Source: Kineococcus radiotolerans SRS30216 = ATCC BAA-149
GTDB lineage: Bacteria; Actinomycetota; Actinomycetes; Actinomycetales; Kineococcaceae
Direction: 5' to 3'
Length of the DNA: 32,000 nt
Assembly (NCBI RefSeq): GCF_000017305.1
Contig: NC_009664.2
Location: 3,330,001-3,362,000 of the forward strand
Shown here: in pieces, positions 1,037-28,374 of the stretch
Layout of the letters: every line of letters begins with the position of its first letter
Numbering within the stretch: the first letter of the stretch is position 1
The notes under the pieces: model-generated
The model's database searches: none
What the model saw: the letters and a program-made list of their open reading frames with translations, nothing else
What the model was told of the DNA's origin: nothing
Position numbers and translations under genes: made by a program

Positions 1037-1240
1037 ATGGCTCAGGGAACTGTCAAGTGGTTCAACGGCGAAAAGGGCTTCGGCTTCATCGCCCCGACTG
1101 ACGGCGGCCCGGACGTCTTCGTCCACTACTCCGCGATCGCCGGCAACGGCTTCCGCAACCTGGAAGAGAACGACCAGGTCGAGTACGAAGTGACCCAGGG
1201 CGCCAAGGGCCCCCAGGCCTCGAACGTCACGCGTCTCTGA
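1037..1240 (+). CDS. cspA: Cold-shock protein, CspA family (67 aa)
   Basis: [20 protein letters not shown]...DVFVHYSAI contains the RNP1 (KGFGFI) and RNP2 (VFVHY) motifs. ATG start with a strong SD; canonical 67-aa length. Confidence 0.97.
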
Positions 1241-14455: not shown

Positions 14456-14521
14456 CTCCCCGACTCTGCCCCCGGACGGACGTCCCTGCGCGGCGGTCCG
14501 GACGTGCGGGAGGATCTGCCC

Positions 14522-15661
14522 GTGAGCCACCACGTCCTCCCCGCCTCCCTGCTGCCCGCCGACGGCCGCTTCGGCTCCGGCCCCTCCAAGGTCCGCCCCG
14601 AGCAGGTCGCGGCCCTCGCCGCCGCCGGGGCGGGGGTGCTCGGCACCTCCCACCGCCAGGCGCCGGTGAGGTCGCTCGTCGCCCGCGTGCGGGCCGGGCT
14701 GGCGGAGCTCTTCGCGCTGCCCGCGGGCTACGAGGTCGCGCTCGGCAACGGCGGCAGCACGGCCTTCTGGGACGTCGCCACCCTCTGCCTGGTGCGCGAG
14801 CGCACCCAGCACCTGGTCCTGGGGGAGTTCTCCGCCAAGTTCGCCGCCGCCGCCGCGGCCGCCCCGTTCCTGGCCGAGCCCGTCGTCGTCCGGGGCGAAC
14901 CCGGGACCCTGCCGCGGCTGGGGGAGGTCGCCGAGGGGGTCGACGTCGTCGCCTGGCCGCACAACGAGACCTCGACCGGGGTGATGGCCCCCGTGCTGCG
15001 CCCGGCCGGTCCGCACCCCGCCGACGGGGGCCCGCTGGTGGTCGTGGACGCGACGTCGGGCGCGGGCGGGCTGGCCGTCGACGTGTCGCAGACCGACGCG
15101 TACTACTTCGCGCCGCAGAAGTCGTTCGCCTCCGACGGGGGGTTGTGGATCGCGCTGCTCTCGCCCGCGGCGCTGGACCGCGTCCACGAGGTCGCGGCGA
15201 CCGGGCGGTGGGTCCCGGCGTCGCTGGACCTGGGGATCGCGGTGGAGAACTCCCGCAAGGACCAGACCTACAACACCCCCGCCGTCGCGACCCTGGTGAT
15301 GCTGGCCGAGCAGGTCGAGTGGATGCTGCGCCGCGGCGGGTTGTCGTGGGCGGCGGCACGTTCGGCGGAATCCGCGGGGATCGTCTACGACTGGGCCGGG
15401 GCGCGGGAGTGGGCGCAACCCTTCGTGACCGAGCCCGCCGCGCGCAGCAACGTCGTCGCGACCGTCGACCTCGACCCCTCGATCGACGCCACGCACGTGC
15501 AGGACGTGCTGCGGCACAACGGGATCGTCGACGTCTTCCCCTACCGCAGCCTGGGGCGGAACCAGTTGCGGATCGGGGTGTTCCCGGCCGTGGAACCCGC
15601 CGACGTGCGGGCCCTGACCCGGTGCGTGGACCACGTCGTGGCGGGGATGAGGAAAGCCTGA
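14522..15661 (+). CDS. serC: Phosphoserine aminotransferase (actinobacterial type)
   Basis: DGRFGSGPSKVR, GTSHRQAPV, GNGGSTAFWD, HNETSTGV, DATSGAGG, YYFAPQKSFASDGGLW and YRSLGRNQLRIGVFPAVEP are colinear with mycobacterial SerC. GTG 14522 has GGGAGGA 7 nt upstream. Confidence 0.95.
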   Translation: MSHHVLPASLLPADGRFGSGPSKVRPEQVAALAAAGAGVLGTSHRQAPVRSLVARVRAGLAELFALPAGYEVALGNGGSTAFWDVATLCLVRERTQHLVLGEFSAKFAAAAAAAPFLAEPVVVRGEPGTLPRLGEVAEGVDVVAWPHNETSTGVMAPVLRPAGPHPADGGPLVVVDATSGAGGLAVDVSQTDAYYFAPQKSFASDGGLWIALLSPAALDRVHEVAATGRWVPASLDLGIAVENSRKDQTYNTPAVATLVMLAEQVEWMLRRGGLSWAAARSAESAGIVYDWAGAREWAQPFVTEPAARSNVVATVDLDPSIDATHVQDVLRHNGIVDVFPYRSLGRNQLRIGVFPAVEPADVRALTRCVDHVVAGMRKA

Positions 15662-17260: not shown

Positions 17261-18547
17261 TCAGGCCGCGGCGGAGTCCCGCTCGTCGCGGGCGAGGGGC
17301 ACGATCCGCAGGTGCGGGCTGGTGCGCAGCGACCACCCGACCCGGACCCGCGCCCGGCGCAGCAGGTAAACCCCGACGACGACCGCGACGAGGACCGAGG
17401 GGATCGAGCCGACGAGGATCGACCACTGCGGGCCGAACCGGGTGCCGACCCAGCCGACGAACGGGCCGCCGACGACGGTGCCGCCCTGCACGAGGGACAT
17501 GTAGATCGCCATGACCCGCCCGCGCATGCGCGGTTCGGTGCTCAGCTGCACCGTCGCGTTGGCCGCGGTCAGCAGGGTCAGCGAGGCCAGGCCCGTGAAG
17601 GGCAGGACGACGAGGTAGAGGACGTAGGTCGGCATCAGGGCGGCCGCCGAGGAGAGCACCCCGAAGGCGGTCGCGGCCCCGATGAGCAGCCGGTGGCGGG
17701 GGCGCTCGCGGCGGGCGGCGACGAGGGCCCCGGCCAGCGACCCGACGGCGAGCGCGGTGCCGGCCAGGCCGAACCCGGCGGAGCCGGTGCGGAACTCCAC
17801 GCTGGTCATGAGGGCGCTGGTCAGCTGGAAGTTCAGGCCGAACGTCCCGACGACCCCGACGAGGACGAAGACCGCCATCAGCTCCGGGCGGGCCCGGACG
17901 TAGGCCAGGCCCTCCCTCATCCCGCCCGTCCCGACGGCCGGCCTCACCCGGGGGACCGGGTGCGCGGGCCGCATGAGGTGCAGCACGACCAGCGGGGCGG
18001 CGAAGGAGAGGGCGTTGAGCAGGAACACCGGCCCGGTGCCGATCCAGGCGATGAGCACCCCGGCCAGCGCCGGCCCGAGGAGGCGGGCGGAGTTGAAGGA
18101 CGCGGAGTTCAGGCCGATCGCGTTGGGCAGGTCCTCGCGGGGGACGAGCTGGCTGACGAACGTCTGCCGCACGGGCCCGTCGATCGCCGAGGCGCAGCCG
18201 AGCAGCGCGGCGAGCACGTAGACGTGCCAGAGCTCGGCCCGTCCCGACATCACGAGGACGGCCATCACCAGCCCGAGGAACCCCATGGCGGCCTGGGTGG
18301 CCATGAGCGTGCGGCGCTGGGGGAAGCGGTCGGCGATGGTGCCCGCGACGGGGGCCAGCAGCAGGATCGGGCCGAACTGCAGCCCGGTCGTGATGCCGGC
18401 GGCCGTGCCGGAGCCGTCGGTGAGGACCTGGATGACCAGCCAGTCCTGGGCCACCCGCTGCATCCAGGTGCCGGTGTTGGAGACGATCGAGCCCGCGGCC
18501 CAGAGGCGGTAGTCGCGGTGCCGCAGGGAGCGGAAGGTCTGGTTCAC
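17261..18547 (-). CDS. MFS transporter (EntS/MFS_3-like efflux type)
   Basis: 428 aa, about 12 TM. N-terminus FRSLRHRDYRLWAAGSIVSNTGTWMQRVAQDWLV is typical of this MFS subfamily. The GTG start overlaps the MarR stop (GTGA at 18544-18547). Confidence 0.88.
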   Translation of the reverse strand: MNQTFRSLRHRDYRLWAAGSIVSNTGTWMQRVAQDWLVIQVLTDGSGTAAGITTGLQFGPILLLAPVAGTIADRFPQRRTLMATQAAMGFLGLVMAVLVMSGRAELWHVYVLAALLGCASAIDGPVRQTFVSQLVPREDLPNAIGLNSASFNSARLLGPALAGVLIAWIGTGPVFLLNALSFAAPLVVLHLMRPAHPVPRVRPAVGTGGMREGLAYVRARPELMAVFVLVGVVGTFGLNFQLTSALMTSVEFRTGSAGFGLAGTALAVGSLAGALVAARRERPRHRLLIGAATAFGVLSSAAALMPTYVLYLVVLPFTGLASLTLLTAANATVQLSTEPRMRGRVMAIYMSLVQGGTVVGGPFVGWVGTRFGPQWSILVGSIPSVLVAVVVGVYLLRRARVRVGWSLRTSPHLRIVPLARDERDSAAA

Positions 18548-18993
18548 TCGCTGATCACCGTGCGCAGGATCCGGGCGGCCTCGGCCAGGGTGGCGCGCTC
18601 GGCGTCGGTGAGGGTCTCCAGGCGCCGGCTCAGCCAGGCCGCGCGCCGGGCCCGGGTCTCCTCGACGACGCCGCGCCCGGCGGGGGAGACGGTGATGAGC
18701 ACCTGGCGGCCGTCGTCGGGGTGGCCGGCGCGCTCGACCAGGCCCTGCTCGACGAGGCCGGCGATGGTGCGCGTCATCGAGGGCGGGCGCACGTGCTCGG
18801 CCTCGGCGAGCTCGCCGGGGGTGCGCGGACCCTGGGTGAACAGGTGCGCCAGGACCGAGAACTGGGCGTCGGAGAGCTCGTCGACGCTCTTCTCGGCCCG
18901 CAGCCGGCGGGCGGTCCGCAGGAGCGAGACGCGCAGGTCGACGGCGAGCTGGTCGGTGGTGGGAGGAGCGGGGCGGGTCCGGGCGGCGGGCAC
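18544..18993 (-). CDS. MarR-family transcriptional regulator
   Basis: LSDAQFSVLAHLFTQGPRTPGELAEAEHVRPPSMTRTIAGLVEQGLVERAGHPDDGRQVLITVSPAG is a winged HTH. GTG 18993 was preferred because GC3 collapses (~64%) in the 18994-19086 extension; alternative ATG at 19086. Confidence 0.85.
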   Translation of the reverse strand: MPAARTRPAPPTTDQLAVDLRVSLLRTARRLRAEKSVDELSDAQFSVLAHLFTQGPRTPGELAEAEHVRPPSMTRTIAGLVEQGLVERAGHPDDGRQVLITVSPAGRGVVEETRARRAAWLSRRLETLTDAERATLAEAARILRTVISE

Positions 18994-19164: not shown

Positions 19165-21360
19165 GTGAGCGGTTCCCCGGCGGCCTCGGCCACCCGCAGG
19201 GCGCGTCGAGCGCTGGAGCGGGCGGCAGCGTCCGCGTCCGAACGGCACGAACCCGTCCTGGAGGTCACCGCGCCCCCCCAGGTCCTCGACCCCGGGCCGG
19301 ACCTGCTGCGCGCCCAGCGGCGCCTCGCCGAGTCCCAGGACCTCGCCGCCCTCGCGGAGGAGCTCGTCGCCGAGGTCCACCGCTGCGGGCACCAGCGCGT
19401 CCTGCTGCTGGAGACCGTCGCCCGCTCCCGCCACCGGGAGCTGGAGGTGCTCACCGCCCGCGGCGACCTCTGCCCGGCCCCCGGCCACCGGCTGACCGGC
19501 GGCGACCTCACCCGGATGGCGCCCACCGCCGTCGTCGAGCTCGTCCCCGGCCACCCCCGCGCCCCCCGGCTCGCGGTCTGGGGGACCGTCGCCGGCTCCA
19601 CCCTCGAGGTCCTGGCCTCCGCCGGCGGTGCGGTCTGGCGCGCGCTGGTCGCCACCGAGGAGGCCCGCCGCGCTGCGCGCGAGGCCACCGGGGCGCAGCT
19701 GCTGCTGTCCGGGGCGCTGCGCCTGGCGGGCCTCGGCTCCTGGTCCTGGGACCCCGCGACCGGCGTCGTCCGCCTCGACGACCGGCTGCGGCGGATGCTC
19801 GGCCTGTGCCCCACCGACCCCGACCCCGACCTGGAGACCTGGCGCAGCGGGATCCACCCCGACGACCGCGGCCCCTTCACCGGGGTCGAGGACCCCGCCG
19901 CGCACGTCGGGACCTCCGCCCCGTACCCCTTCCGGGTCACCTCCGCCGACGGCACCGAGCGCACCTTCCTCGGGATGAGCGTCCCGCTGGCCACCACCAG
20001 CTCCAGCGCCGTGCAGGGTCTCGTCCTCGACGTCTCGGCGGGGGAGAAGTCCACCGGCGAGCTCGTCCGCCTCGCCCAGTGCGACTCCCTCACCGGCCTG
20101 GCCAACCGCTCGGTCATGGACCTGCGCCTCGTCGAGGCGCTGGAGACCGCGACCCCCACCGACGCCGTCGCCCTCGTGCTGCTCGACCTCGACCGCTTCA
20201 AGCTCGTCAACGACACCCTCGGCCACCAGATCGGCGACGCGCTGCTGCGCCAGGTCGCCGTCCGCCTGCAGGACGCCGTGCCGCCCGGAGCCGTCCTGGC
20301 CCGCCTCGGCGGCGACGAGTTCGTCGTCATGGTCCCCGGCGTCGACCGGCCCGAAGCGGTGTCGATCATGGCCCGCGACCTCCTCCGCCGGCTGCGGGCG
20401 CCCATGATGCTGCCCGGGCTGCCCGAACCCTTCGTCTGCACCTCCAGCGCCGGGATCGCCGTCGGGCACAGCGGCACCGCCGACGACCTGTTCCGCAGCG
20501 CGGACATGGCCCTCTACCGGGCCAAGGACGGCGGCCGCGACCGCGTCGCCCTCTACGACTCCGCGATGCGCCACGAGGCCCAGGCCCGCCGCGACGCCGA
20601 GCACCGCGTCCGCCGGGCGCTGCGCACCGACGGGCTGCGGGTGGTCTGGCAGCCCATCGTCAGCCTCAGCGACCACGAGATCGTCGCCGCCGAGGCCCTC
20701 GTCCGCCTCGAGGACCCCGTCGAGGGCCTGCTCGAGCCCAAGGAGTTCGTCGACACCGCCGAGGACACCGGCCTCATCGTCGACGTCGACACCTGGGTGC
20801 TCGGGGAGGTGCTGCGGCAGCTGCGCGAGTGGCGCCGCGCCGGCGTCGGCCTGCAGGTCTCCTTCAACGTCTCGGGCAAGACCCTGGAGCACCCCTCCTT
20901 CGCCCACCGCCTCGCCCACAGCGTCGAGTCCACCGGCGCCTCCGGGTCCTCGCTGCTGGCCGAGGTCACCGAGCGCACCCTCATCGACCTCTCCAGCTCC
21001 ACCCGGGCCAGCCTCGGGGAGCTGCGCAGCATCGGGGCCCGCGTCGGCCTCGACGACTTCGGGACCGGCTACTCCTCGCTGTCCTACCTCGACCGCTTCC
21101 CGCTGAGCTTCCTCAAGATCGACATGAGCTTCGTCCGCCCGCTCGGGACCTCCGACCGCGCCGAGGCCGTGGTGCGGGCGCTCATCAGCCTCGCCCACGC
21201 CCACGGGATGGTCGTCACCGCCGAGGGCGTGGAGACCGAGCTCCAGGCCGCGATGCTGCGCGACATGGGCTGCGACCGCGCCCAGGGCTACCTCTTCGGC
21301 CGCCCCGTCGTCGCCGCGGCGCTGCCCCAGGGCGTGCTCGGCCCCCGGTTCCGCCCCTAG
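19165..21360 (+). CDS. Bifunctional c-di-GMP signalling protein (N-terminal sensor region - PAS - GGDEF - EAL)
   Basis: PAS-like LGSWSWDPATGVVRLDDRLRRMLG...IHPDD. GGDEF site SLTGLANR...RLGGDEFVVMV. EAL motifs EALVRL, SFNVS, EVTE, DDFGTGYSSLSYL, KIDMSFV, EGVETE and QGYLFGRP are all intact. Confidence 0.92.
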   Translation: MSGSPAASATRRARRALERAAASASERHEPVLEVTAPPQVLDPGPDLLRAQRRLAESQDLAALAEELVAEVHRCGHQRVLLLETVARSRHRELEVLTARGDLCPAPGHRLTGGDLTRMAPTAVVELVPGHPRAPRLAVWGTVAGSTLEVLASAGGAVWRALVATEEARRAAREATGAQLLLSGALRLAGLGSWSWDPATGVVRLDDRLRRMLGLCPTDPDPDLETWRSGIHPDDRGPFTGVEDPAAHVGTSAPYPFRVTSADGTERTFLGMSVPLATTSSSAVQGLVLDVSAGEKSTGELVRLAQCDSLTGLANRSVMDLRLVEALETATPTDAVALVLLDLDRFKLVNDTLGHQIGDALLRQVAVRLQDAVPPGAVLARLGGDEFVVMVPGVDRPEAVSIMARDLLRRLRAPMMLPGLPEPFVCTSSAGIAVGHSGTADDLFRSADMALYRAKDGGRDRVALYDSAMRHEAQARRDAEHRVRRALRTDGLRVVWQPIVSLSDHEIVAAEALVRLEDPVEGLLEPKEFVDTAEDTGLIVDVDTWVLGEVLRQLREWRRAGVGLQVSFNVSGKTLEHPSFAHRLAHSVESTGASGSSLLAEVTERTLIDLSSSTRASLGELRSIGARVGLDDFGTGYSSLSYLDRFPLSFLKIDMSFVRPLGTSDRAEAVVRALISLAHAHGMVVTAEGVETELQAAMLRDMGCDRAQGYLFGRPVVAAALPQGVLGPRFRP

Positions 21361-22589
21361 CCCGACGCCGGCACCGTCCCCAGCGCGGCCTCCAGCGCGG
21401 TCCCCAGCCGCGCCACCCCCTCGTGGATCCGCGCGGGGGTGTGCGTCGTGAACGACAGCCGCAGCGTCGCCCGGTCCGGTGCCCCGGCGAAGAACGGTTC
21501 CCCGGGCACGAACGCCACCCCGGCGGCCAGCGCGCCCGGCAGCAGGGACGCGGTGTCCAGCGTGCCGCCGGGGTCCGGCAACCGGACCCAGGTGAACATG
21601 CCGCCCTCGGGGCGGGACCAGGAACTGCCCGCGGGCAGCGCGTCCGCCAGGGCCGCGAGCGCGGCGTCGCGGCGCTCGCGGTAGGCGGCGACGACGGTGG
21701 CGACGTGGGCGTCGAGGTCGGTCCGCGCCAGGTAGACCGCCGCGGCGGCCTGGTCGACGGTGGAGGTCTGCAGGTCCGCGGCCTGCTTGGCGACCACGAG
21801 CGCCGGGCGCAGCGACCTCGGGACCCGGGCCCAGCCCAGCCGCAGGCCCGGGGCGCCGGTCTTGGAGAAGCTGCCCAGGTGCACGCACCGGTCGGCGAGC
21901 GCCGGGTCCGCGGCCAGCGGGGCGACGTGCTCGCCGGAGTAGCGCAGCTCGCCGTAGGGGTCGTCCTCGACGACCCAGGTCCCGTGCTCCGCGGCGAGTT
22001 CCGCGATCCGGGCGCGCCGCGGCGCGGGGAGGGTGCGCCCGGTCGGGTTCGCGAAGTTCGGGACGAGGTACAGGACCCGCGGGCGGTGCTCCCGGAGGAC
22101 CTCCTCGACCGAGGCCGGGACGACCCCGTGCTCGTCGGCGGCGATCCCGACGACGCGCGCCCCGGCCAGCGCGAACGACTGCAGCGCAGCGAGGTAGCTG
22201 GGTTCCTCCACCGCCACGACCGCGCCGGGTTCCAGCAGGGCCGTCGTCAGCAGGCTGAGGGCCTGCTGCGAACCCGTCGTGATCAGCAGGTCGTCCGGCT
22301 CCGTCGGCAGACTGCGCCGGGTGAGGCGGGCGGCGACGAGCTCCCGCAGCGCCGGGTCGCCCTCGCTGGCCGCGTACTGGAGGTTGCGCCGCGCCGCGTC
22401 CCCGGTCAGTGCCTGCGCGTAGGCCTCGCGCAGACCCTCCACGTCGAACAGCTCCGGGGCGGGCAGCCCTCCCGCGAAGGAGATCACGTCCTCGTTCCCG
22501 ACGAGGGCGAGCAGGTCCCGGACGGGGGAGGAGCGCACCCCCGCGAGCCGGGAACCGATCGGCGGCAGGGGGGCGGGGACGGTGGGCAC
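21357..22589 (-). CDS. PLP-dependent aminotransferase family protein (class I/II fold, stand-alone MocR/LysN-like catalytic domain)
   Basis: ISFAGGLPAPELF, NFANPTGRTL, SFSKTGAPGLRLGWA (PLP lysine). GTG 22589 is preceded by GAGGAG 6 nt upstream; alternative GTG at 22649. Confidence 0.85.
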   Translation of the reverse strand: MPTVPAPLPPIGSRLAGVRSSPVRDLLALVGNEDVISFAGGLPAPELFDVEGLREAYAQALTGDAARRNLQYAASEGDPALRELVAARLTRRSLPTEPDDLLITTGSQQALSLLTTALLEPGAVVAVEEPSYLAALQSFALAGARVVGIAADEHGVVPASVEEVLREHRPRVLYLVPNFANPTGRTLPAPRRARIAELAAEHGTWVVEDDPYGELRYSGEHVAPLAADPALADRCVHLGSFSKTGAPGLRLGWARVPRSLRPALVVAKQAADLQTSTVDQAAAAVYLARTDLDAHVATVVAAYRERRDAALAALADALPAGSSWSRPEGGMFTWVRLPDPGGTLDTASLLPGALAAGVAFVPGEPFFAGAPDRATLRLSFTTHTPARIHEGVARLGTALEAALGTVPASG

Positions 22590-22755
22590 GGAGGGCTCCT
22601 CGGGGCGGCGGTGGGGTTTCGTGCCGCCCCGCGACGGTCGTGGCGTCACGGCGCGACGGGGACGCGGCCGGGGTGAGGAGCGTTCGGGCCGAGGTTACAC
22701 GGCGGGTCGCGCGCCGGGTCGGGTGTTTTCGTCCGCGCGCCGGGTCGCGCGGGGT

Positions 22756-23539
22756 TCAGGCGCCGGGCGGCACGCGGTGCACGTGCGCGGCGTCGGCCTG
22801 GGCGATCGGCCGCAGCACGACCTTGTCGAGGTCGACGTGGGCGGGGCGGGTCACGGCGAAGGCGATGACGTCCGCGACGTCCTCGGCGGTGAGGGGGGTG
22901 AGCCCCTGGTAGACCTTCCCGGCGGCCTCCGCCGACCCCAGGCGGACCACGGAGAACTCCGTCTCCACCATGCCGGGGGCGATCTCGGTGACCCGCACGG
23001 GCTCGCCCAGCAGTTCCTGGCGCAGCGTGCGGCACAGGGCGTTCACGCCGTGCTTGACCGCGGTGTACCCGCCGCCGCCGGGGTAGACCTCGAACCCCGC
23101 GATGGAGCCCAGGACGACGACGTGGCCGTTGCCGCCGCGGCGCACCCCCGCCAGCAGCGCCTGGTGGACCCGCAGGACGCCGACGACGTTGACGTCGTAC
23201 ATCGCCTTCCAGCCCTCCGGGTCGCCGTTCTCGACGGTGTCGGAGCCGAAGGCGCCCCCCGCGGAGTGCACGACGACGTCGACGTCCCCGACCTGCGCGG
23301 CCATCGCGGCGACCGACGCGGCGTCGGTCACGTCGAGGGCGACGGCGCGCCCGCCGACCTCGCGGGCCAGTTCCTCGCAGCGCTCGACGCGGCGGGCGGC
23401 GGCGACGGTGTCGAAGCCGGCGGCGGCCAGCGCCCGCACGGTGGCGGCGCCGATGCCGCTGCTGGCCCCCGTGACGAGGGGCGGTGCGGCGGCGGGGGGT
23501 CTGCGGGGCGTCGGTGGTCTGCGGGGCCATGCGGGCCAT
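22756..23539 (-). CDS. SDR-family oxidoreductase; N-terminus apparently frameshifted at G6 run 23494-23499
   Basis: LVTGASSGIGAAT (TGxxxGxG), HSAG, YTAVKHG (YxxxK), PGMVETEF. There is no in-frame ATG/GTG/TTG within 340 nt upstream of the Rossmann motif. ATGs at 23539/23530 lie in the neighbouring frame, which has 100% GC3. Confidence 0.8.
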
Positions 23540-23592: not shown

Positions 23593-23841
23593 GTGCCGCT
23601 GTTCCTGCCCCCCTCCCGGGCGAAGCCACCGCCCCCGCCGATGCGCACCGACGACCGGCTCGCCGTGCTCGTGGGCCTGGCGGTGTGGGCCGTGCTGCTC
23701 CTCGTGGCCGTCGCGGTGCCGGAGGTCCGCGGCACGGGTCAGGGGCGCTGGCTCGGTTCCTGCGTGGCCGGGGTGGTCCTCGGCCTCCTCGGCCTCGCCT
23801 TCGTCCACCGCCGCGACCACCGGGACCGTCGCGGCCGGTAG
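23593..23841 (+). CDS. Small two-TM membrane protein (DUF2530-like)
   Basis: Pro-rich N-terminus followed by two hydrophobic helices (LAVLVGLAVWAVLLLVAVAV; CVAGVVLGLLGLAFV). High GC3. GTG 23593 has GGGAGGA ~10 nt upstream; alternative ATG at 23641. Confidence 0.55.
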   Translation: MPLFLPPSRAKPPPPPMRTDDRLAVLVGLAVWAVLLLVAVAVPEVRGTGQGRWLGSCVAGVVLGLLGLAFVHRRDHRDRRGR

Positions 23842-23885: not shown

Positions 23886-26800
23886 TCAGCCCGGCAGGCC
23901 GGGCAGTTCCGCGGCCAGCGCCGCCGTCGGGTCGGCCGCGGTGAGCACCTCAGCGAGCGCCGTGCGCAGCGACCAGCGGCCCACCGCCTGGGCCAGCCCG
24001 GCCGCGGCGGCCGCCGCGTCGACGGCCAGGACCCCGCCGTCCTCCCCGACCCAGAACCGGACGGGCTCGCCGTCGCAGCGCAGCCGCTCGACGTGGCGCC
24101 ACGACCCGGGCAGGTCCGGGGCGAGGACGGCGGCGGCCGCGGGGACCTCGCGCTCCTCCCCGCCCGGGTGCTCCACGACCCCCGCCGCCCGGTCGGAGGA
24201 GAGGTCCAGGTCCAGCAGGTCCGCCACGGCCACCGCGGCGTGCGCCGGGACGAGGACCCGCGGCCCGAGGTCGGTGCGCTGGGCCCACGCCGGGGACTCC
24301 ACGACGACCGCGTCGCCGGCCGCCGCCACCACCACCCGCCCCCCGGCGTCGAGGGCGGCCAGGCGCGGCGGCGCGGCGAGGACGACGTCGCCGGCGCAGC
24401 GGCCCAGCAGCCCCCACAGCACCAGCAGGTCCACCGGCGCGGGCGGCTGCTCCGCGCTCAGGCGCAGCAGCGCCGGCAGGTCCTCCGCCCCGGCCGCGCC
24501 CAGGTCCGGCAGCACCCCGAGCGCGGCCCGGGCCGCGGCCGGCAGCGAGGCGCTCCAGCCCGGCGCCACCGGGACCCACGCCGGGGCGCGGCCCCCCGCG
24601 GTGCGCGAGACCTCCGGCAGCGGGCCGTGCCGGCGCAGCCACCAGGACGTCAGCCCCGTCCTCCGGTGCTCCCCGAGGCACCACGGGGCGGTGAGCGCGC
24701 GCAGCCCCGCGGGGGTGCCGGCGAGGTCGGCGAGGACCTCCGGCCACGCCCCGACGACGAGGTCGAGGTCGCGCACGACGACGACGTCGGGCACCGCGGC
24801 CCCCTCGTCCAGCACGTCGCCCCAGACGTCCTCGACGTACTCCGCGAAACCCGCCAGCCCCGCCTCCTCGCCCGCCCCGGGATCGCCCAGGTCGAGCTCG
24901 TCCAGGTGCGTCAGCGCCGGGCCGGACAGCACCCCCACCGCCCGCAGGACGGCGGATCCCCACTCCCGCAGCGTGTCCGGCGCCACCGGGACGACGTCGT
25001 CGGGGTCGAGGGCCCGTTCGGCGAGGGTGCCGGGCAGCAGCAGCGCACCCGCCGGGGCGAGGTCGTCCACCTCGTCGGGCAGGGCGAGGTCGGCCAGCCA
25101 GGGGAGGTCCTGCGCGGTGCGCCGCACCGCGTCCTCGTCGGGGGCGCCGCCGGGGCCGGTGACCACCGCCGCCACCAGGTCCAGCACGGCCCCGGCCACC
25201 TCGTCGGGGTCCTCGGCGTCGGGGGAGGCCGCGACCGCGGCCCGCACGGCGGGATCGGTCAGCACCGCCCACGCCCCGCCCTCGCGCGCGCCCAGGCGCA
25301 GCAGCAGGTCCCGGCCAGGACCCTGCGAGGCCACCGGGTCCACCACCCGCAGCCCGTGCCCGGCGAAGACCCGCGCGGCGGCGGGGTCGAGCAGGTCGGG
25401 GTCGTCGAGCAGGACCGTCCCGCGGGGGCCGTGGACCCGCCGCCCGTCCAGCAGGGGGACCGGCAGGCCGGACATCGCCTCGCGGGCGGAGGGGTCCGCG
25501 GCCAGCGGGGCCAGCGCCGCGAACAGGTCCCGGCTGCCCGTCGCGTCCAGCCCGGGCAGGACGTCGAGGACGTCGGCCAGCCCCAGCCGGGCGACCCCGA
25601 GCTCGGTGAGCAGCCGGTCCGCGGAGCGCGGGGCCGCGATCAGCCCGGCCAGTGCCGGGGCGAGCGCGGCCAGCAGCGCGGGGTCGTCGGCGCCGGCGCC
25701 GGTGAGCGCCACCGCGGAGCTGGGCCGCAACAGCAGCGGGGCGGCCCCCCCGTCGTGCCCGGGGTGCTCCACGGCCACCAGGAGCGGGGCGTCGCGGGCC
25801 CGGTCCAGGACCCGGCGGCGCAGCTCCGCGTCCACCCGCCCGGCGCCGAGGCCGAAGGGGAGCAGCGCCGGGGCGTCGCCCCCGTCGGCGGCGACCTCGG
25901 TGAGCAGCGCGCAGTACGCCTCGGCCGCGGCGTCGAGCAGGGCGTCGGTGGCCCGCCCGGGCGCGAGCCGGCGCCGGTCGGGACCCAGCGGGAACGTCGC
26001 CACCAGGACCGCCGGCCACGGCAGGTCCTCGTCGGTGGGGGTCGGGGCGCACACCACGCCGGGCAGGAGCGCCGGGGCCGGACCGTCCCCGGTCTCGTCC
26101 CCGGGTCCGGCGGCCCCGGCGGGCAGGGCCCAGGTCAGCTGCCAGCCCAGCCGGCGGCGGTCCTCCACCCCGCGGTCGGCGAGGTCGGCGGGGTCGTGGC
26201 GGCCGGTGCGGCGCAGCACCCGCCAGCGCCGCCCGACGTCGGTCACGCGCCGGGCCGGGTGCCCCGGCACCTCCACGACGACCTCGGCCAGCGCGGGGAG
26301 CGCGAGCAGCAGCACGTCGCCCACGCCGTGGCGGACCCCGGGGGCCAGCAGGGCCTCCACCGCCGCGCGGGCCTCGGCGTCGCGCAGCGGGAGGTCCACG
26401 ACGGTGTCGTAGCCGGCCGGCACCTGCGCGGCGTCGGGGGCGGGGAAGGGCAGCCGCAGCGCCGGCACGTGACCCTCGCGGCGGTCCACCTCGGCGACCA
26501 GCCCGGGCGAGGCGCCCGCCCGCAGCAGGGCGGCGGATTCCGTGCGGGAGAAGCGGACCGCGCCGGTCGAGGAGCGGATCGCCGGGGCGTCGGTGACGGC
26601 GAGGACGGCGGCGAACCCCACGCCGAAGCGCCCGACGACGCCCGGCGCGCCGGCGGGGCCGGCCTTGGCGCTCGCGCGCAGGGTGGCGAGCCCCTGCACC
26701 CCCTCGGCGTCGAGCGGGGCGCCGGTGTTCGCGGCCAGCAGCCGGCCCGGGCCCCCGGCGGGGTCGTCGAGCAGCCGCAGCAGCAACCGGCCCTCGACGC

Positions 26801-26993
26801 CGGCGTCCGCCGCGGCGTCGGCGGCGTTCTGCGCGAGCTCCACGACGAGCCGGTCGCGGTAGGCGCCCAGGGAGGCGTCCTCCTCGGCGTTGGCGTCCTC
26901 GCGCAGCCGGGCGGGGGAGTCGGCCCACCCGGCCAGGACCCGCGCCCGCAGGGCGGCCGTGCCGAACGGGTCGTCCCCGCCGAGGGGGGTCAG
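23886..26993 (-). CDS. Large (~1035 aa) sacsin/Hsp90-like GHKL ATP-binding domain protein of unknown function
   Basis: N-terminal DPFGTAALRARVLAGW...LVVELAQNAADAA (N-box, 26814-26840) and VGRFGVGFAAV (G-box, 26613-26633) resemble Hsp90 ELISNSSDA / GQFGVGF. The rest is Ala/Leu/Asp/Pro-rich without named motifs. The start is inferred at CTG 26993; there is no canonical start nearby. Confidence 0.8.
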   Translation of the reverse strand: MTPLGGDDPFGTAALRARVLAGWADSPARLREDANAEEDASLGAYRDRLVVELAQNAADAAADAGVEGRLLLRLLDDPAGGPGRLLAANTGAPLDAEGVQGLATLRASAKAGPAGAPGVVGRFGVGFAAVLAVTDAPAIRSSTGAVRFSRTESAALLRAGASPGLVAEVDRREGHVPALRLPFPAPDAAQVPAGYDTVVDLPLRDAEARAAVEALLAPGVRHGVGDVLLLALPALAEVVVEVPGHPARRVTDVGRRWRVLRRTGRHDPADLADRGVEDRRRLGWQLTWALPAGAAGPGDETGDGPAPALLPGVVCAPTPTDEDLPWPAVLVATFPLGPDRRRLAPGRATDALLDAAAEAYCALLTEVAADGGDAPALLPFGLGAGRVDAELRRRVLDRARDAPLLVAVEHPGHDGGAAPLLLRPSSAVALTGAGADDPALLAALAPALAGLIAAPRSADRLLTELGVARLGLADVLDVLPGLDATGSRDLFAALAPLAADPSAREAMSGLPVPLLDGRRVHGPRGTVLLDDPDLLDPAAARVFAGHGLRVVDPVASQGPGRDLLLRLGAREGGAWAVLTDPAVRAAVAASPDAEDPDEVAGAVLDLVAAVVTGPGGAPDEDAVRRTAQDLPWLADLALPDEVDDLAPAGALLLPGTLAERALDPDDVVPVAPDTLREWGSAVLRAVGVLSGPALTHLDELDLGDPGAGEEAGLAGFAEYVEDVWGDVLDEGAAVPDVVVVRDLDLVVGAWPEVLADLAGTPAGLRALTAPWCLGEHRRTGLTSWWLRRHGPLPEVSRTAGGRAPAWVPVAPGWSASLPAAARAALGVLPDLGAAGAEDLPALLRLSAEQPPAPVDLLVLWGLLGRCAGDVVLAAPPRLAALDAGGRVVVAAAGDAVVVESPAWAQRTDLGPRVLVPAHAAVAVADLLDLDLSSDRAAGVVEHPGGEEREVPAAAAVLAPDLPGSWRHVERLRCDGEPVRFWVGEDGGVLAVDAAAAAAGLAQAVGRWSLRTALAEVLTAADPTAALAAELPGLPG

Positions 26994-27988
26994 GAGCTCG
27001 GGTCCACGAGCTCGAAGGCGGCCGGGTCGAGGTCGTCGACGACCAGGGGCGACGCGGGGGCGTCCGCCACCACCTCGACGTCGGTCTCGCTGTGGGCCCC
27101 GCAGCCGTGGTCGGCGCTGACGACGCGGGCGTCCTCGGGGGACCACTCGTTGGCGCAGACGCCGAAGACCTGGCGCAGGGACCCGGCCAGGGGCAGGAAG
27201 AAGCCGCACGTCGAGCACGGCGCCTTGGCGTTCTCGGCGATCTCGGTGCGCGGGCCGCGGTCGCCGTCGTACCAGCGCGTCGCGGCCTCGTCGCGGCCGA
27301 GGGGGGAGAGGACGCGCTCGCGGCCCAGGCCCAGCTCCCAGAGCGCCAGCTCGTCGGCCTCGGCGTCGCCGGTGGCCTCGTAGCCCTGCTCCAGCAGCGG
27401 GTCGTCGGCCTTGCGCGGCAGGGTGTCCTGCGGGCCGACGTCGCCGGGGGCGATGCGCTCGGACCACGGCAGCCACTCCGGTGCGCGCAGGGCGTCCTCG
27501 CCGGGCAGCAGGCAGACCTCGTTGACGGTGACGTTGCGCGCGCGGGAGGCGCGGGTGACGGTGACCGTCCAGCGCCAGCCCCGGTAGCCGGGCAGCAGGC
27601 AGGCGAAGGCGTGGCTGACGATGCGGTCGCCCTCGGCGGTGGCCTCGAGGTGCTCCCCGACGCTGTCGTCCTCGGCGACCTCCTCGGCCGCGGTGCGGGC
27701 GAGGTCGACGGCGGCGGCCGCGGCGGCGTCCAGGGTGGGCTTGCGGGGGCGGCGGGCGCGCTTGGCGGGCACCTCGACGCCGGCGGTCTCGGGGTGCTCC
27801 CCGGCGCCGGCGTCCTCGGCGACCTCCTCGGCCGCGGCGAGCTCGACGGCGGCGGCGGCGGCCGGGGTGGGCTTGCGGGGGCGGCGGGCGCGCTTGGCGG
27901 GCACCTCGACGGCAGCGGCCTCGGGGGCTTCGGGGGCCTCGACGGCCTCGGGGGTGGCGCCGTCCAGGGGCGCGGTCGCCTCGCTCAC
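26990..27988 (-). CDS. DUF3027-like protein (acidic/basic repeat N-terminus, C-terminal Cys/His cluster)
   Basis: 332 aa. The GTG start overlaps the csp stop (GTGA at 27985-27988). Two VEVPAKRARRPRKPT repeats. The C-terminal CSTCGFF...GVCANEWS...DHGCGAHS suggests metal binding. Confidence 0.75.
   Translation of the reverse strand: MSEATAPLDGATPEAVEAPEAPEAAAVEVPAKRARRPRKPTPAAAAAVELAAAEEVAEDAGAGEHPETAGVEVPAKRARRPRKPTLDAAAAAAVDLARTAAEEVAEDDSVGEHLEATAEGDRIVSHAFACLLPGYRGWRWTVTVTRASRARNVTVNEVCLLPGEDALRAPEWLPWSERIAPGDVGPQDTLPRKADDPLLEQGYEATGDAEADELALWELGLGRERVLSPLGRDEAATRWYDGDRGPRTEIAENAKAPCSTCGFFLPLAGSLRQVFGVCANEWSPEDARVVSADHGCGAHSETDVEVVADAPASPLVVDDLDPAAFELVDPSS
27649..27924 (-). repeat. Imperfect tandem duplication (144 + 132 bp) inside the DUF3027-like CDS
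   Basis: Copy A is 27649-27792 and copy B is 27793-27924. A 46-nt perfect core GGTGGGCTTGCGGGGGCGGCGGGCGCGCTTGGCGGGCACCTCGACG occurs at 27734-27779 and 27866-27911. The copies differ by two 6-nt indels, so the reading frame is kept. Confidence 0.9.
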
Positions 27989-28374
27989 GCGCCGGCCTCG
28001 AAGTCGTCGGCGACGGCCCGCAGGACGGTGGCGACCTTCTTCGCCCCGGCCTTGTCGGGGTAGCGCCCGCGCCGCAGCGACCCGGAGACCCCGTCGAGGA
28101 GCTTGATGAGGTCCTCGACGATCGGCACCACGTCCTCGGGCTTCTTGCGCGTCGCGCGGGCGACGGAGTGCACCGGGTCGAGCAGGCGCACCGAGAGCGC
28201 CTGCGTCCCGTTCTTGCCCTGCACGACGCCGAACTCGACGCGGCTGCCCTTGGACAGCGTCGTCGTGCCCGCGGGCAGCGCGGAGGCGTGCACGAACACC
28301 TCGGCGCCGTCCTCGGCGGCGAGGAAGCCGAACCCCTTGTCGGCGTCGAACCACTTGACCTTGCCAGTGGGCAC
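27985..28374 (-). CDS. Cold-shock domain protein with a ~60-aa C-terminal extension (mycobacterial CspB-like)
   Basis: PTGKVKWFDADKGFGFLAAEDGAEVFVHASAL followed by ...EDLIKLLDGVSGSLRRGRYPDKAGAKKVATVLRAV. GTG 28374 (GGAGAAGG upstream) gives the N-terminus VPTGKVKW, as in M. tuberculosis CspB. Alternative ATG at 28443. Confidence 0.85.
   Translation of the reverse strand: MPTGKVKWFDADKGFGFLAAEDGAEVFVHASALPAGTTTLSKGSRVEFGVVQGKNGTQALSVRLLDPVHSVARATRKKPEDVVPIVEDLIKLLDGVSGSLRRGRYPDKAGAKKVATVLRAVADDFEAGA

Follow-up and report, generated by a model that had tools for sequence, protein, structure and literature searches.

A conserved actinobacterial gene block in Kineococcus radiotolerans joining a CspB ortholog, a DUF3027 signature protein and a facultative sacsin/Hsp90-type GHKL ATPase

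The cold-shock protein CspB of Mycobacterium tuberculosis forms a dimer via a C-terminal two-helix hairpin, joined by a flexible linker, that builds a four-helix bundle, and its affinity for the small RNAs (sRNAs) MTS0997 and MTS1338 is in the nanomolar range (PMC12840758). It is also recovered together with RNA and degradosome baits from M. tuberculosis (PMC6582357), and it has recently been put forward as the small-RNA chaperone that was missing in mycobacteria. A second family, DUF3027, corresponds to SCO4330/ML2142/Rv0877 and is listed in the literature among the actinobacterial signature proteins. Tiamat, represented in the PADLOC database by TmtA profiles (PDLC03964-03972), is an anti-phage system whose mechanism is still listed as unexplained in recent literature. 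Here we describe a locus of Kineococcus radiotolerans SRS30216 (= ATCC BAA-149) in which a cspB gene, a DUF3027 gene and a gene for a large ATPase related to sacsin and TmtA adjoin each other. The locus lies in a stretch of 32,000 nucleotides (NC_009664.2, positions 3,330,001 to 3,362,000), which is referred to as the window and to which all positions below refer. A literature search found no paper discussing a linkage of DUF3027 to CspB and a sacsin/TmtA-like ATPase.

The three genes and their main features are the following.

27985 to 28374, minus strand: cspB ortholog, 129 amino acids, with a cold-shock domain (CSD) at residues 1-65 and a conserved 64-residue C-terminal two-helix extension
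27988 to 28179, minus strand: C-terminal extension of the CSD protein (residues 66-129), a predicted dimerising alpha-helical hairpin
27985 to 27988, minus strand: GTGA stop/start overlap of cspB and the DUF3027 gene, read directly from the sequence
26990 to 27988, minus strand: DUF3027 gene, 332 amino acids, PF11228
27634 to 27951, minus strand: direct duplication in the N-terminal tail of DUF3027, 132-144 nt (repeat families D1 and D2, 83-84% identity)
27089 to 27217, minus strand: Cys/His cluster CSTCGFF...GVCANEWS...DHGCGAHS of DUF3027, a putative Cys4 (+ His) metal site
26990 to 26993, minus strand: CTGA stop/start overlap of the DUF3027 and ATPase genes, with CTG as the start of the ATPase gene
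23886 to 26993, minus strand: sacsin/Hsp90-type GHKL ATPase gene, 1035 amino acids, NF047352
26814 to 26840, minus strand: GHKL motif I (N-box) ELAQNAADA of the ATPase; E52, N56 and D59 are invariant in 40 homologs
26613 to 26633, minus strand: GHKL glycine-rich ATP lid GRFGVGF of the ATPase; G121, R122, F123, G124, G126 and F127 are invariant in 40 homologs
23889 to 25646, minus strand: C-terminal ~590 residues of the ATPase, a confident alpha/beta fold (predicted local distance difference test, pLDDT, mostly >90) with no assignable family

An earlier note on this DNA, made from the letters alone, had described three co-directional minus-strand genes joined by 4-nt overlaps. The coordinates, the GTGA and CTGA junctions and the coding signature were all confirmed, the motifs it quoted (KRARRPRKP twice, the Cys/His cluster, ELAQNAADA and GRFGVGF) translate as written, and Pfam and NCBIfam profile searches agreed with its calls of a CSD, a DUF3027 protein, a sacsin-like ATP-binding domain and a DUF2530 protein. 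The first junction reads GCG-TGA / GTG-AGC, with the CSD stop codon TGA at 27985-27987 and the DUF3027 start codon GTG at 27986-27988, and the second reads TCC-TGA / CTG-ACC. The G+C content is 70-82% across the window. At codon positions 1/2/3 it is 0.89/0.57/0.98 in the ATPase gene, 0.80/0.56/0.99 in the DUF3027 gene and 0.72/0.47/0.99 in the CSD gene; overlapping alternative frames do not have this signature, so the frames given are the coding ones. Stop-to-stop GC3 calling loses the target genes at 77-81% GC, and the independent coding-potential caller was of the log-odds suffix type; it placed the starts of the CSD gene (28374) and the DUF3027 gene (27988) exactly where they had been read. 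An overlap of 4 nt is the commonest overlap in bacterial operons and is unremarkable alone; what goes beyond chance is the conservation of the arrangement and not the overlaps themselves. Because the packing is so tight, the three genes of K. radiotolerans are most probably co-transcribed and translationally coupled, the support for a single transcript being the 4-nt overlaps and the lack of intergenic space as read from the DNA. Scans of the locus for sigma-70 promoters and terminators were uninformative at such a G+C content, as was the folding of the convergent intergenic region (z -1.24), and an Rfam search of the window gave no match.

Conservation of gene order was analyzed in 80 genome loci anchored on DUF3027, onto which the window proteins were mapped and in which all called genes were clustered; 77 of these loci were informative for the presence of the CSD and ATPase genes (tblastn). 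A long CSD gene is located upstream of DUF3027 on the same strand in 76 of the 77 informative loci and is its most constant neighbour, followed by DUF2530 (51 of the 80 loci), an NCS2 permease (48) and MarR (43). The gap between the CSD and DUF3027 genes is at most 150 nt in 45 of 74 loci and zero or negative in 13. The ATPase gene is found directly downstream of DUF3027 in 44 of the 77 informative loci, two of these being tblastn matches at contig ends; in all 42 loci in which the caller called it, it is the next same-strand gene, with a gap of at most 150 nt in 33 and with many -4 overlaps. Loci bearing the ATPase come from Kineosporiales, all sampled Streptosporangiales, Sanguibacter, Cellulosimicrobium, Isoptericola, Cellulomonas, Georgenia and a metagenome-assembled genome (MAG) of Motilibacteraceae. 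The Intrasporangiaceae, Dermatophilaceae, Dermacoccaceae and Micromonospora loci are without it, and DUF3027 is then followed by the convergent DUF2530 gene or a permease gene. The backbone that emerges from these loci is XPB helicase, helicase-associated protein, (HAD), CspB, (MFS), DUF3027, (ATPase), DUF2530, NCS2 permease, MarR, MFS, (ThpR) and SerC. In Tsukamurella (L082) the order is moaA, a hypothetical gene, cold-shock, TetR, MFS, DUF2771, MFS, DUF3027, an ATPase homolog (840 amino acids, 1-nt gap after DUF3027), PAP2, DUF2530 and MarR. The order of the block is retained in Nocardia and Streptomyces clavuligerus, and look-ups anchored on the ATPase returned the full block in two loci. 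The linkage extends well beyond close relatives, being present in Kineosporiales, Streptosporangiales, several Micrococcales families, Mycobacteriales (Nocardia, Tsukamurella) and Streptomyces, and it survives the co-occurrence test that had been set beforehand. The block order was found in every actinobacterial order sampled, and the ATPase is facultative. We consider this descriptive part, comprising the gene identities, their packing and the conserved order, nearly certain.

The first gene of the block encodes a protein with a CSD at residues 3-63 (PF00313, E 1.6e-19, Pfam) in which the RNP-type motifs 'DKGFGFL' and 'EVFVHAS' are present, and its GTG start at 28374 yields the N-terminus 'MPTGKVKW' typical for the family. 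It is 51% identical to M. tuberculosis CspB (PDB 9xw3_A) in an alignment that extends to residue 126 of 129, the extension included, and a profile of 23 CSD orthologs matches 9xw3_A ('Probable cold shock-like protein B CspB') with E 2.3e-52 over positions 2-126. The C-terminal extension is conserved across the 23 aligned orthologs and corresponds in the alignment to the 9xw3 helical hairpin from which the four-helix-bundle dimer is built; Pfam searched at E 10 gave no domain in this extension. Judged by this similarity, gene 1 is an ortholog of M. tuberculosis CspB (Rv0871) and hence not uncharacterised. Its earlier description as CspB-like with a ~60-residue extension was right in anatomy but understated the identity. 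The Kineococcus protein shares both the CSD and the two-helix hairpin with M. tuberculosis CspB; dimerisation and sRNA binding have been measured for the latter and are predicted by homology for the former. Further orthologs are CspB of Streptomyces coelicolor (SCO4325) and MSMEG_5696 of M. smegmatis, and SCO4325 is five gene numbers away from the DUF3027 gene SCO4330. Relative to DUF3027, cspB has the same position as in Tsukamurella and Nocardia; in K. radiotolerans it is directly coupled to DUF3027, whereas in Mycobacteriales other genes lie between. A second cold-shock protein of the window (1037-1240, plus strand) is canonical, with 67 amino acids and without a C-terminal extension.

The best reading of these data, though we hold it only tentatively and give it somewhat less than an even chance, is a functional CspB-DUF3027 core with an optional ATPase partner that acts in nucleic-acid handling. 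It is suggested by CspB being the most constant neighbour and by the position of the ATPase gene immediately downstream wherever it is linked. CspB and DUF3027 would be the core pair, with CspB supplying RNA to the module, and the ATPase would be an add-on working physically with DUF3027, possibly as a dimeric clamp or chaperone that uses ATP to act on DUF3027 itself or on a complex of DUF3027 with nucleic acid. The module would then be a housekeeping or stress unit for nucleic-acid handling rather than a mobile defence system, with RNA as the likeliest substrate since the measured CspB ligands are RNAs. The ribonucleoprotein (RNP) remodelling module proposed in the earlier note is plausible, its sole experimental support being CspB RNA binding, which comes from another species. 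We think it unlikely that the genes form an Actinobacteria-specific CspB-DUF3027 RNA-chaperone machine, boosted by the ATPase in about half of the sampled lineages, which would fill the role of Hfq and ProQ; mycobacteria have been reported to be without these two proteins.

Several observations weigh against a functional CspB-DUF3027 core with an ATPase partner. An opposite-strand MFS gene lies between the CSD and DUF3027 genes in Streptosporangiales and Tsukamurella, and in Micromonospora an MFS gene plus two or three others do so. A single operon is therefore not universal, and the overlap-coupled operon of the earlier note holds for the tight coupling seen here but not as a general feature. 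The ATPase is missing next to DUF3027 in 33 of the 77 informative loci, and in Actinopolymorpha pittospori and two relatives (L084, L087, L089) the two genes are not linked. Actinomyces oris (L090) has a 565-residue long-tailed DUF3027 with neither a CSD gene nor an ATPase gene nearby; its gene comes after XPB and the helicase-associated protein and is followed by uracil-DNA glycosylase (UDG) and a 1674-residue DEAD/DEAH helicase, a setting that points to DNA. The one apparent fusion of DUF3027 with SACS (P0340, metagenomic, 1231 amino acids) was rejected as a frameshift artefact, in which DHGCGAHS is lost and long out-of-frame Arg/Pro/Cys stretches occur. In M. smegmatis cspB is not cold-induced. 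The G1 box of the ATPase reads NTGAP (N89-T90-G91-A92-P93) and not DxGxG, and nucleic-acid binding by DUF3027 is something we infer purely, because its Cys region has no confident model and the protein no structural match. Finally, adjacency alone is weak evidence of shared function, since the whole region from XPB to SerC is a syntenic backbone.

This last point leads to the main rival explanation, synteny without shared function, which we regard as possible but rather doubtful. CspB would then be a general RNA chaperone, DUF3027 an unrelated protein (acting, for example, in metal or redox sensing) and the ATPase an independent chaperone, and the overlaps would reflect compaction. The conservation of flanks of mixed function (XPB, helicase-associated protein, MFS, DUF2530, NCS2 permease, MarR, ThpR and SerC) speaks for this explanation, and so do the opposite-strand genes that interrupt CSD and DUF3027 in several orders, an ATPase that is both dispensable and relocatable, and the failure to find a true gene fusion. 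It accounts less well for the frequency of the CSD gene, as any other backbone gene reaches at most 51 of 80 loci, and for the ATPase being the next same-strand gene after DUF3027 in every locus in which it was called. The stop/start overlaps, moreover, are kept or re-created across orders, and the register is preserved even where GTG became CTG.

The register of the second junction depends on the unusual CTG start of the ATPase gene. No in-frame ATG, GTG or TTG is present between 51 codons upstream and 50 codons downstream of CTG 26993. The ATPase homologs (n=40) start 2-6 residues ahead of a conserved 'DPFGT', residues 31-48 (REDANAEED...GYRDR) are near-invariant among them, and the coding-potential breakpoint of the gene falls at 26999, two codons from the CTG. 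At the homologous position other loci read as follows.

Loci L006, L011, L015, L018, L054 and L079: GTGA at the DUF3027/ATPase junction
Loci L001-L003 (Kineococcus): CTGA at the DUF3027/ATPase junction

The GTGA overlap thus occurs in identical register in Sanguibacter, Cellulosimicrobium, Isoptericola, Sphaerisporangium and two MAGs, and two Streptosporangiales loci have TGAcATG at this junction. As three further loci of the genus read CTGA where other orders read GTGA, the non-canonical start recurs in Kineococcus. In a fourth Kineococcus locus (L004) no start codon was recognisable in register. Public gene calls begin the ATPase at GTG 26843 (985 amino acids), which removes 50 conserved N-terminal residues, the near-invariant motif included; similar truncations were seen in several other Kineococcus annotations (beginning MREDAN..., MVELAQ... 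or MELAQ...). Together, the absent alternative starts, the N-termini of homologs, the breakpoint and the shared register support CTG 26993 as the probable start, and we accept the 1035-residue protein and the second overlap; the length and the CTGA junction given earlier for this gene were borne out by comparison across orders.

The protein encoded by gene 2 matches PF11228 with 299.6 bits (cut-off 25) over profile positions 1-192 of 193 (Pfam). The 332-residue protein, its assignment to DUF3027, the composition of its N-tail and the Cys/His cluster are as described before. It consists of a disordered basic, Ala/Pro/Glu-rich N-tail followed by a conserved core at residues ~85-305. The family is large, with 6509 homologs in one search and 1775 clusters at 50% identity in another; all named matches and all loci are actinobacterial, while the 1775 clusters carry no taxonomy. 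C258, C261, C278, C296 and H299 are invariant in 36 sequences, and H294 is replaced by Tyr in one subfamily. The Kineococcus protein is a full-length family match that keeps all invariant residues and differs in an extra duplicated basic and acidic N-tail segment. The duplication yields both KRARRPRKP copies and repeats the first core helix in degenerate form. The homologs in other Kineococcus have 272-308 amino acids and one KRARRPRKP copy, and on sequence comparison the duplication appears to be peculiar to this lineage.

One DUF3027 subfamily (P0344, P0359 and P0322) carries acidic Ala/Ser/Gly/Asp-rich low-complexity C-tails of 300-700 residues and has 'EYGCGAHS' in place of 'DHGCGAHS'. These long proteins were also considered as candidate fusions and discarded, the tails being only acidic low-complexity sequence. 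The artefact P0340 is a warning for domain-fusion inference in high-GC assemblies.

The AlphaFold2 (AF2) model of DUF3027 is poor (pLDDT 60, Cys region <50) and confident only at residues 80-165, which form a helix and a four-stranded sheet. A Foldseek search with this model gave nothing better than E 0.19 and hence no significant structural neighbour. A weak but repeated profile match to SRCR proteins in the PDB (PIT54, CD5L; E 7e-4) covers the motif GVCANEWSP.D.RVVS.DHGCGA (residues ~276-298; window 27095-27163, minus strand) and was rejected as probable motif-level convergence on a short Cys motif. The earlier statement that DUF3027 has no assigned function stands insofar as a literature search found no paper on the function of DUF3027 or Rv0877, but a phenotype has been published: in a transposon screen of S. 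coelicolor more than five independent insertions in SCO4330 were recovered, with reduced actinorhodin production. RNase J was also among the top hits of that screen.

The ATPase encoded by gene 3 has 99% identity to a database protein of K. radiotolerans and matches the sacsin N-terminal ATP-binding-like domain NF047352 at residues 47-139 (70.3 bits, cut-off 50, NCBIfam). The Pfam SACS family (PF25794) stays below its cut-off (24.8 vs 32.8 bits; profile positions 23-125 of 247), and many of the ATPase homologs carry a precomputed PF25794 match. In a Pfam search with the full-length protein, SACS was the sole family reaching E 0.01 and no HSP90 family signal was obtained; at E 10 no match was found in residues 151-1035. 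Sacsin SR1 is the sole PDB sequence relative below E 1e-3, and PDB sequence matches to Hsp90 (E 0.015 or weaker) cover residues 61-137 only. With sacsin SR1 the protein shares the Bergerat fold, the E-x3-N-x2-D motif, the 'LRASAK...VGRFGVGF' lid region, in which GRFGVGF aligns to 'GRFGIGF' of sacsin, and an Asn in place of the G1-box Asp, sacsin likewise having Asn-Asn there ('YNNA'). It differs from sacsin in being bacterial, in having a single repeat and in being without the J and HEPN domains described for sacsin; a literature search found no paper on bacterial sacsin-like proteins.

The AF2 model of the ATPase has a mean pLDDT of 90. Its best Foldseek matches in the PDB are full-length Hsp90, TRAP1 and GRP94 (E 2e-7, 550-730 aligned columns), with sacsin SR1 at E 1e-4; TM-scores of the Hsp90 and sacsin alignments are only 0.2-0.35, at ~12% identity. 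The fold is thus like that of Hsp90, TRAP1 and GRP94 over 550-730 columns, but neither an Hsp90 family profile match nor the N-M-C architecture with C-terminal dimerisation domain that defines Hsp90/HtpG proteins was found. The ATPase keeps the ATP-binding residues of Hsp90 and sacsin, its model has an Hsp90-like N- plus middle-domain fold, and ATP binding and hydrolysis are predicted.

These matches bear on a second alternative, in which the ATPase would be a dedicated protein chaperone that folds, metallates or disaggregates DUF3027 or its bound client, nucleic acid playing no part and CspB being a mere neighbour. Hsp90-family chaperones and sacsin SR1 are its best structural matches, sacsin has been described in the literature as a chaperone, and DUF3027, with its long disordered tails and a putative metal site that AF2 does not model, would be a fitting client; the DUF3027-ATPase adjacency is also tighter than that of CSD and DUF3027. 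To our knowledge, the best fold matches do not include DNA-acting GHKL enzymes. We nevertheless judge this alternative improbable. DUF3027 is kept without an adjoining ATPase in 33 of 77 loci and therefore does not need it, the ATPase persists away from DUF3027 in the Actinopolymorpha-like genomes, and the lack of an HSP90 Pfam signal and of any match for residues 151-1035 gives no support to an Hsp90-type chaperone.

The strongest sequence relationship of the ATPase is to TmtA of Tiamat. Eight PADLOC TmtA profiles match its residues 22-447 (best E 1.6e-28, 96.8 bits), a region comprising the N-terminal extension, the GHKL domain and part of the middle domain. Coverage is confined to the N-terminal 13-30% of the profiles (positions 50-279 of 1782, 23-356 of 1538 and 29-422 of 1370). 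The profiles have 1302-1782 positions against 1035 residues here, which makes the ATPase 270-750 residues shorter, and no full-length match was obtained. Residues 450-1035 were matched by none of the searched families and lie outside the TmtA and Hsp90 sequence matches. The N-terminal GHKL fold had earlier been recognised correctly, but it is not the only recognisable part, as the first ~400 residues also match TmtA; nor is the protein wholly without relatives of known phenotype, since TmtA belongs to an anti-phage system. Viral fold matches are RIIA-type GHKL proteins (E 1e-6 to 1e-4, TM-score 0.15-0.26), a fold-level likeness of the GHKL and middle regions, and no sequence match of the ATPase to phage records was found.

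A Tiamat-like role in defence against phages or mobile elements, with the ATPase related to TmtA and DUF3027 as sensor or partner, would agree with the TmtA profiles and with the viral fold matches, as RIIA-type proteins belong to phage-host conflict. We consider it very improbable. Besides the partial coverage of the TmtA profiles, Tiamat is found in variable islands and hotspots according to the literature, whereas the 80 loci analyzed here have conserved housekeeping flanks and a vertically inherited core block. The records behind the four 'plasmid' matches of the ATPase have the size of a chromosome or resemble one, and the two annotated records that were opened carry the same DUF3027 block; DUF3027 itself had no match in PADLOC. 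The block is apparently chromosomal and vertically inherited and not a defence island, in line with a housekeeping or stress CspB-DUF3027 core. Two records from human faeces labelled 'UNVERIFIED: Bacteriophage sp.' (MT835499, L091, and MT838041) match DUF3027. MT835499 has 72.5% G+C and a CSD gene directly upstream of DUF3027, and both are most likely bacterial contigs.

On either side of the three genes the window contains the following neighbours.

23641 to 23841, plus strand: DUF2530 small two-transmembrane-helix membrane protein, convergent, 66 amino acids (82 if started at GTG 23593); PF10745, 28.7 vs 25.5 bits
28504 to 29229, minus strand: HAD-family hydrolase, separated from cspB by a 129-nt gap; Pfam HAD E 8.7e-19

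The convergent DUF2530-like gene that had been placed at the 3' end of the block passes PF10745. In 51 of 80 loci, with or without the ATPase, it is found downstream of DUF3027 in the opposite orientation, and it is called as such in L086, L082 and L088. The HAD gene precedes the CSD gene in 29 of 80 loci and so is a frequent but not a constant neighbour. The genes for MarR, MFS and a SerC-like aminotransferase (17261-18993, minus strand, and 14504-15661, plus strand) belong to the conserved DUF3027 backbone; MarR is present in 43, MFS in 36 and SerC in 18 of the 80 loci. Compared with the backbone elsewhere, a gene for a PAS-GGDEF-EAL cyclic-di-GMP protein (19165-21360, plus strand) is inserted between DUF2530 and MarR, and the same insertion holds an SDR gene (22756-23520, minus strand) and an aminotransferase gene (21357-22649, minus strand). 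In the Actinopolymorpha-like clade an AICARFT_IMPCHas-like gene diverges from the ATPase gene, and a PAP2-DAGK fusion and SerRS are located close by; in Tsukamurella, too, a PAP2 gene is found, immediately after the ATPase.

The helicase genes of the backbone raise the question of whether the module acts on DNA, with CspB binding single-stranded DNA (ssDNA) and the GHKL ATPase as a DNA clamp in repair or nucleoid handling alongside XPB. Binding of ssDNA is also known for cold-shock domains. The 8 kb upstream include XPB and its helicase-associated partner (partner in 44, XPB in 24 of 80 loci), and in A. oris the DUF3027 gene comes straight after that of the helicase-associated protein, with the UDG and helicase genes mentioned above as neighbours. 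Mostly, though, XPB and its partner occupy the opposite strand at a distance of several genes, the measured CspB ligands are RNAs, and the fold matches of the ATPase are Hsp90-type chaperones and phage RIIA. We therefore rate action on DNA as quite improbable and retain, tentatively, a CspB-DUF3027 core that most likely handles RNA.

All three families of the block were already catalogued, and the first is now characterised; the ATPase can be seen as a branch of the sacsin/TmtA-type ATPases that is coupled to DUF3027 and probably has a housekeeping role. The literature counts DUF3027 among some two dozen proteins present in nearly all Actinobacteria but in no other group. CspB is its most constant neighbour, and in many orders it is also coupled to a conserved sacsin-like ATPase. 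Among the relatives of this ATPase that have a known phenotype, the closest is the Tiamat defence protein, itself mechanistically unexplained. If the three products cooperate, the block would offer a tractable entry to sRNA chaperoning in Actinobacteria, to the role of a signature protein and to the targets of sacsin/TmtA-type ATPases. Were the RNA-chaperone machine to prove true, remodelling of RNA-protein complexes would for the first time have been shown for a GHKL enzyme, and the ATPase could indicate the mechanism of TmtA. If the products do not cooperate, a clean synteny map of the DUF3027 loci and a corrected start codon for the ATPase remain useful.

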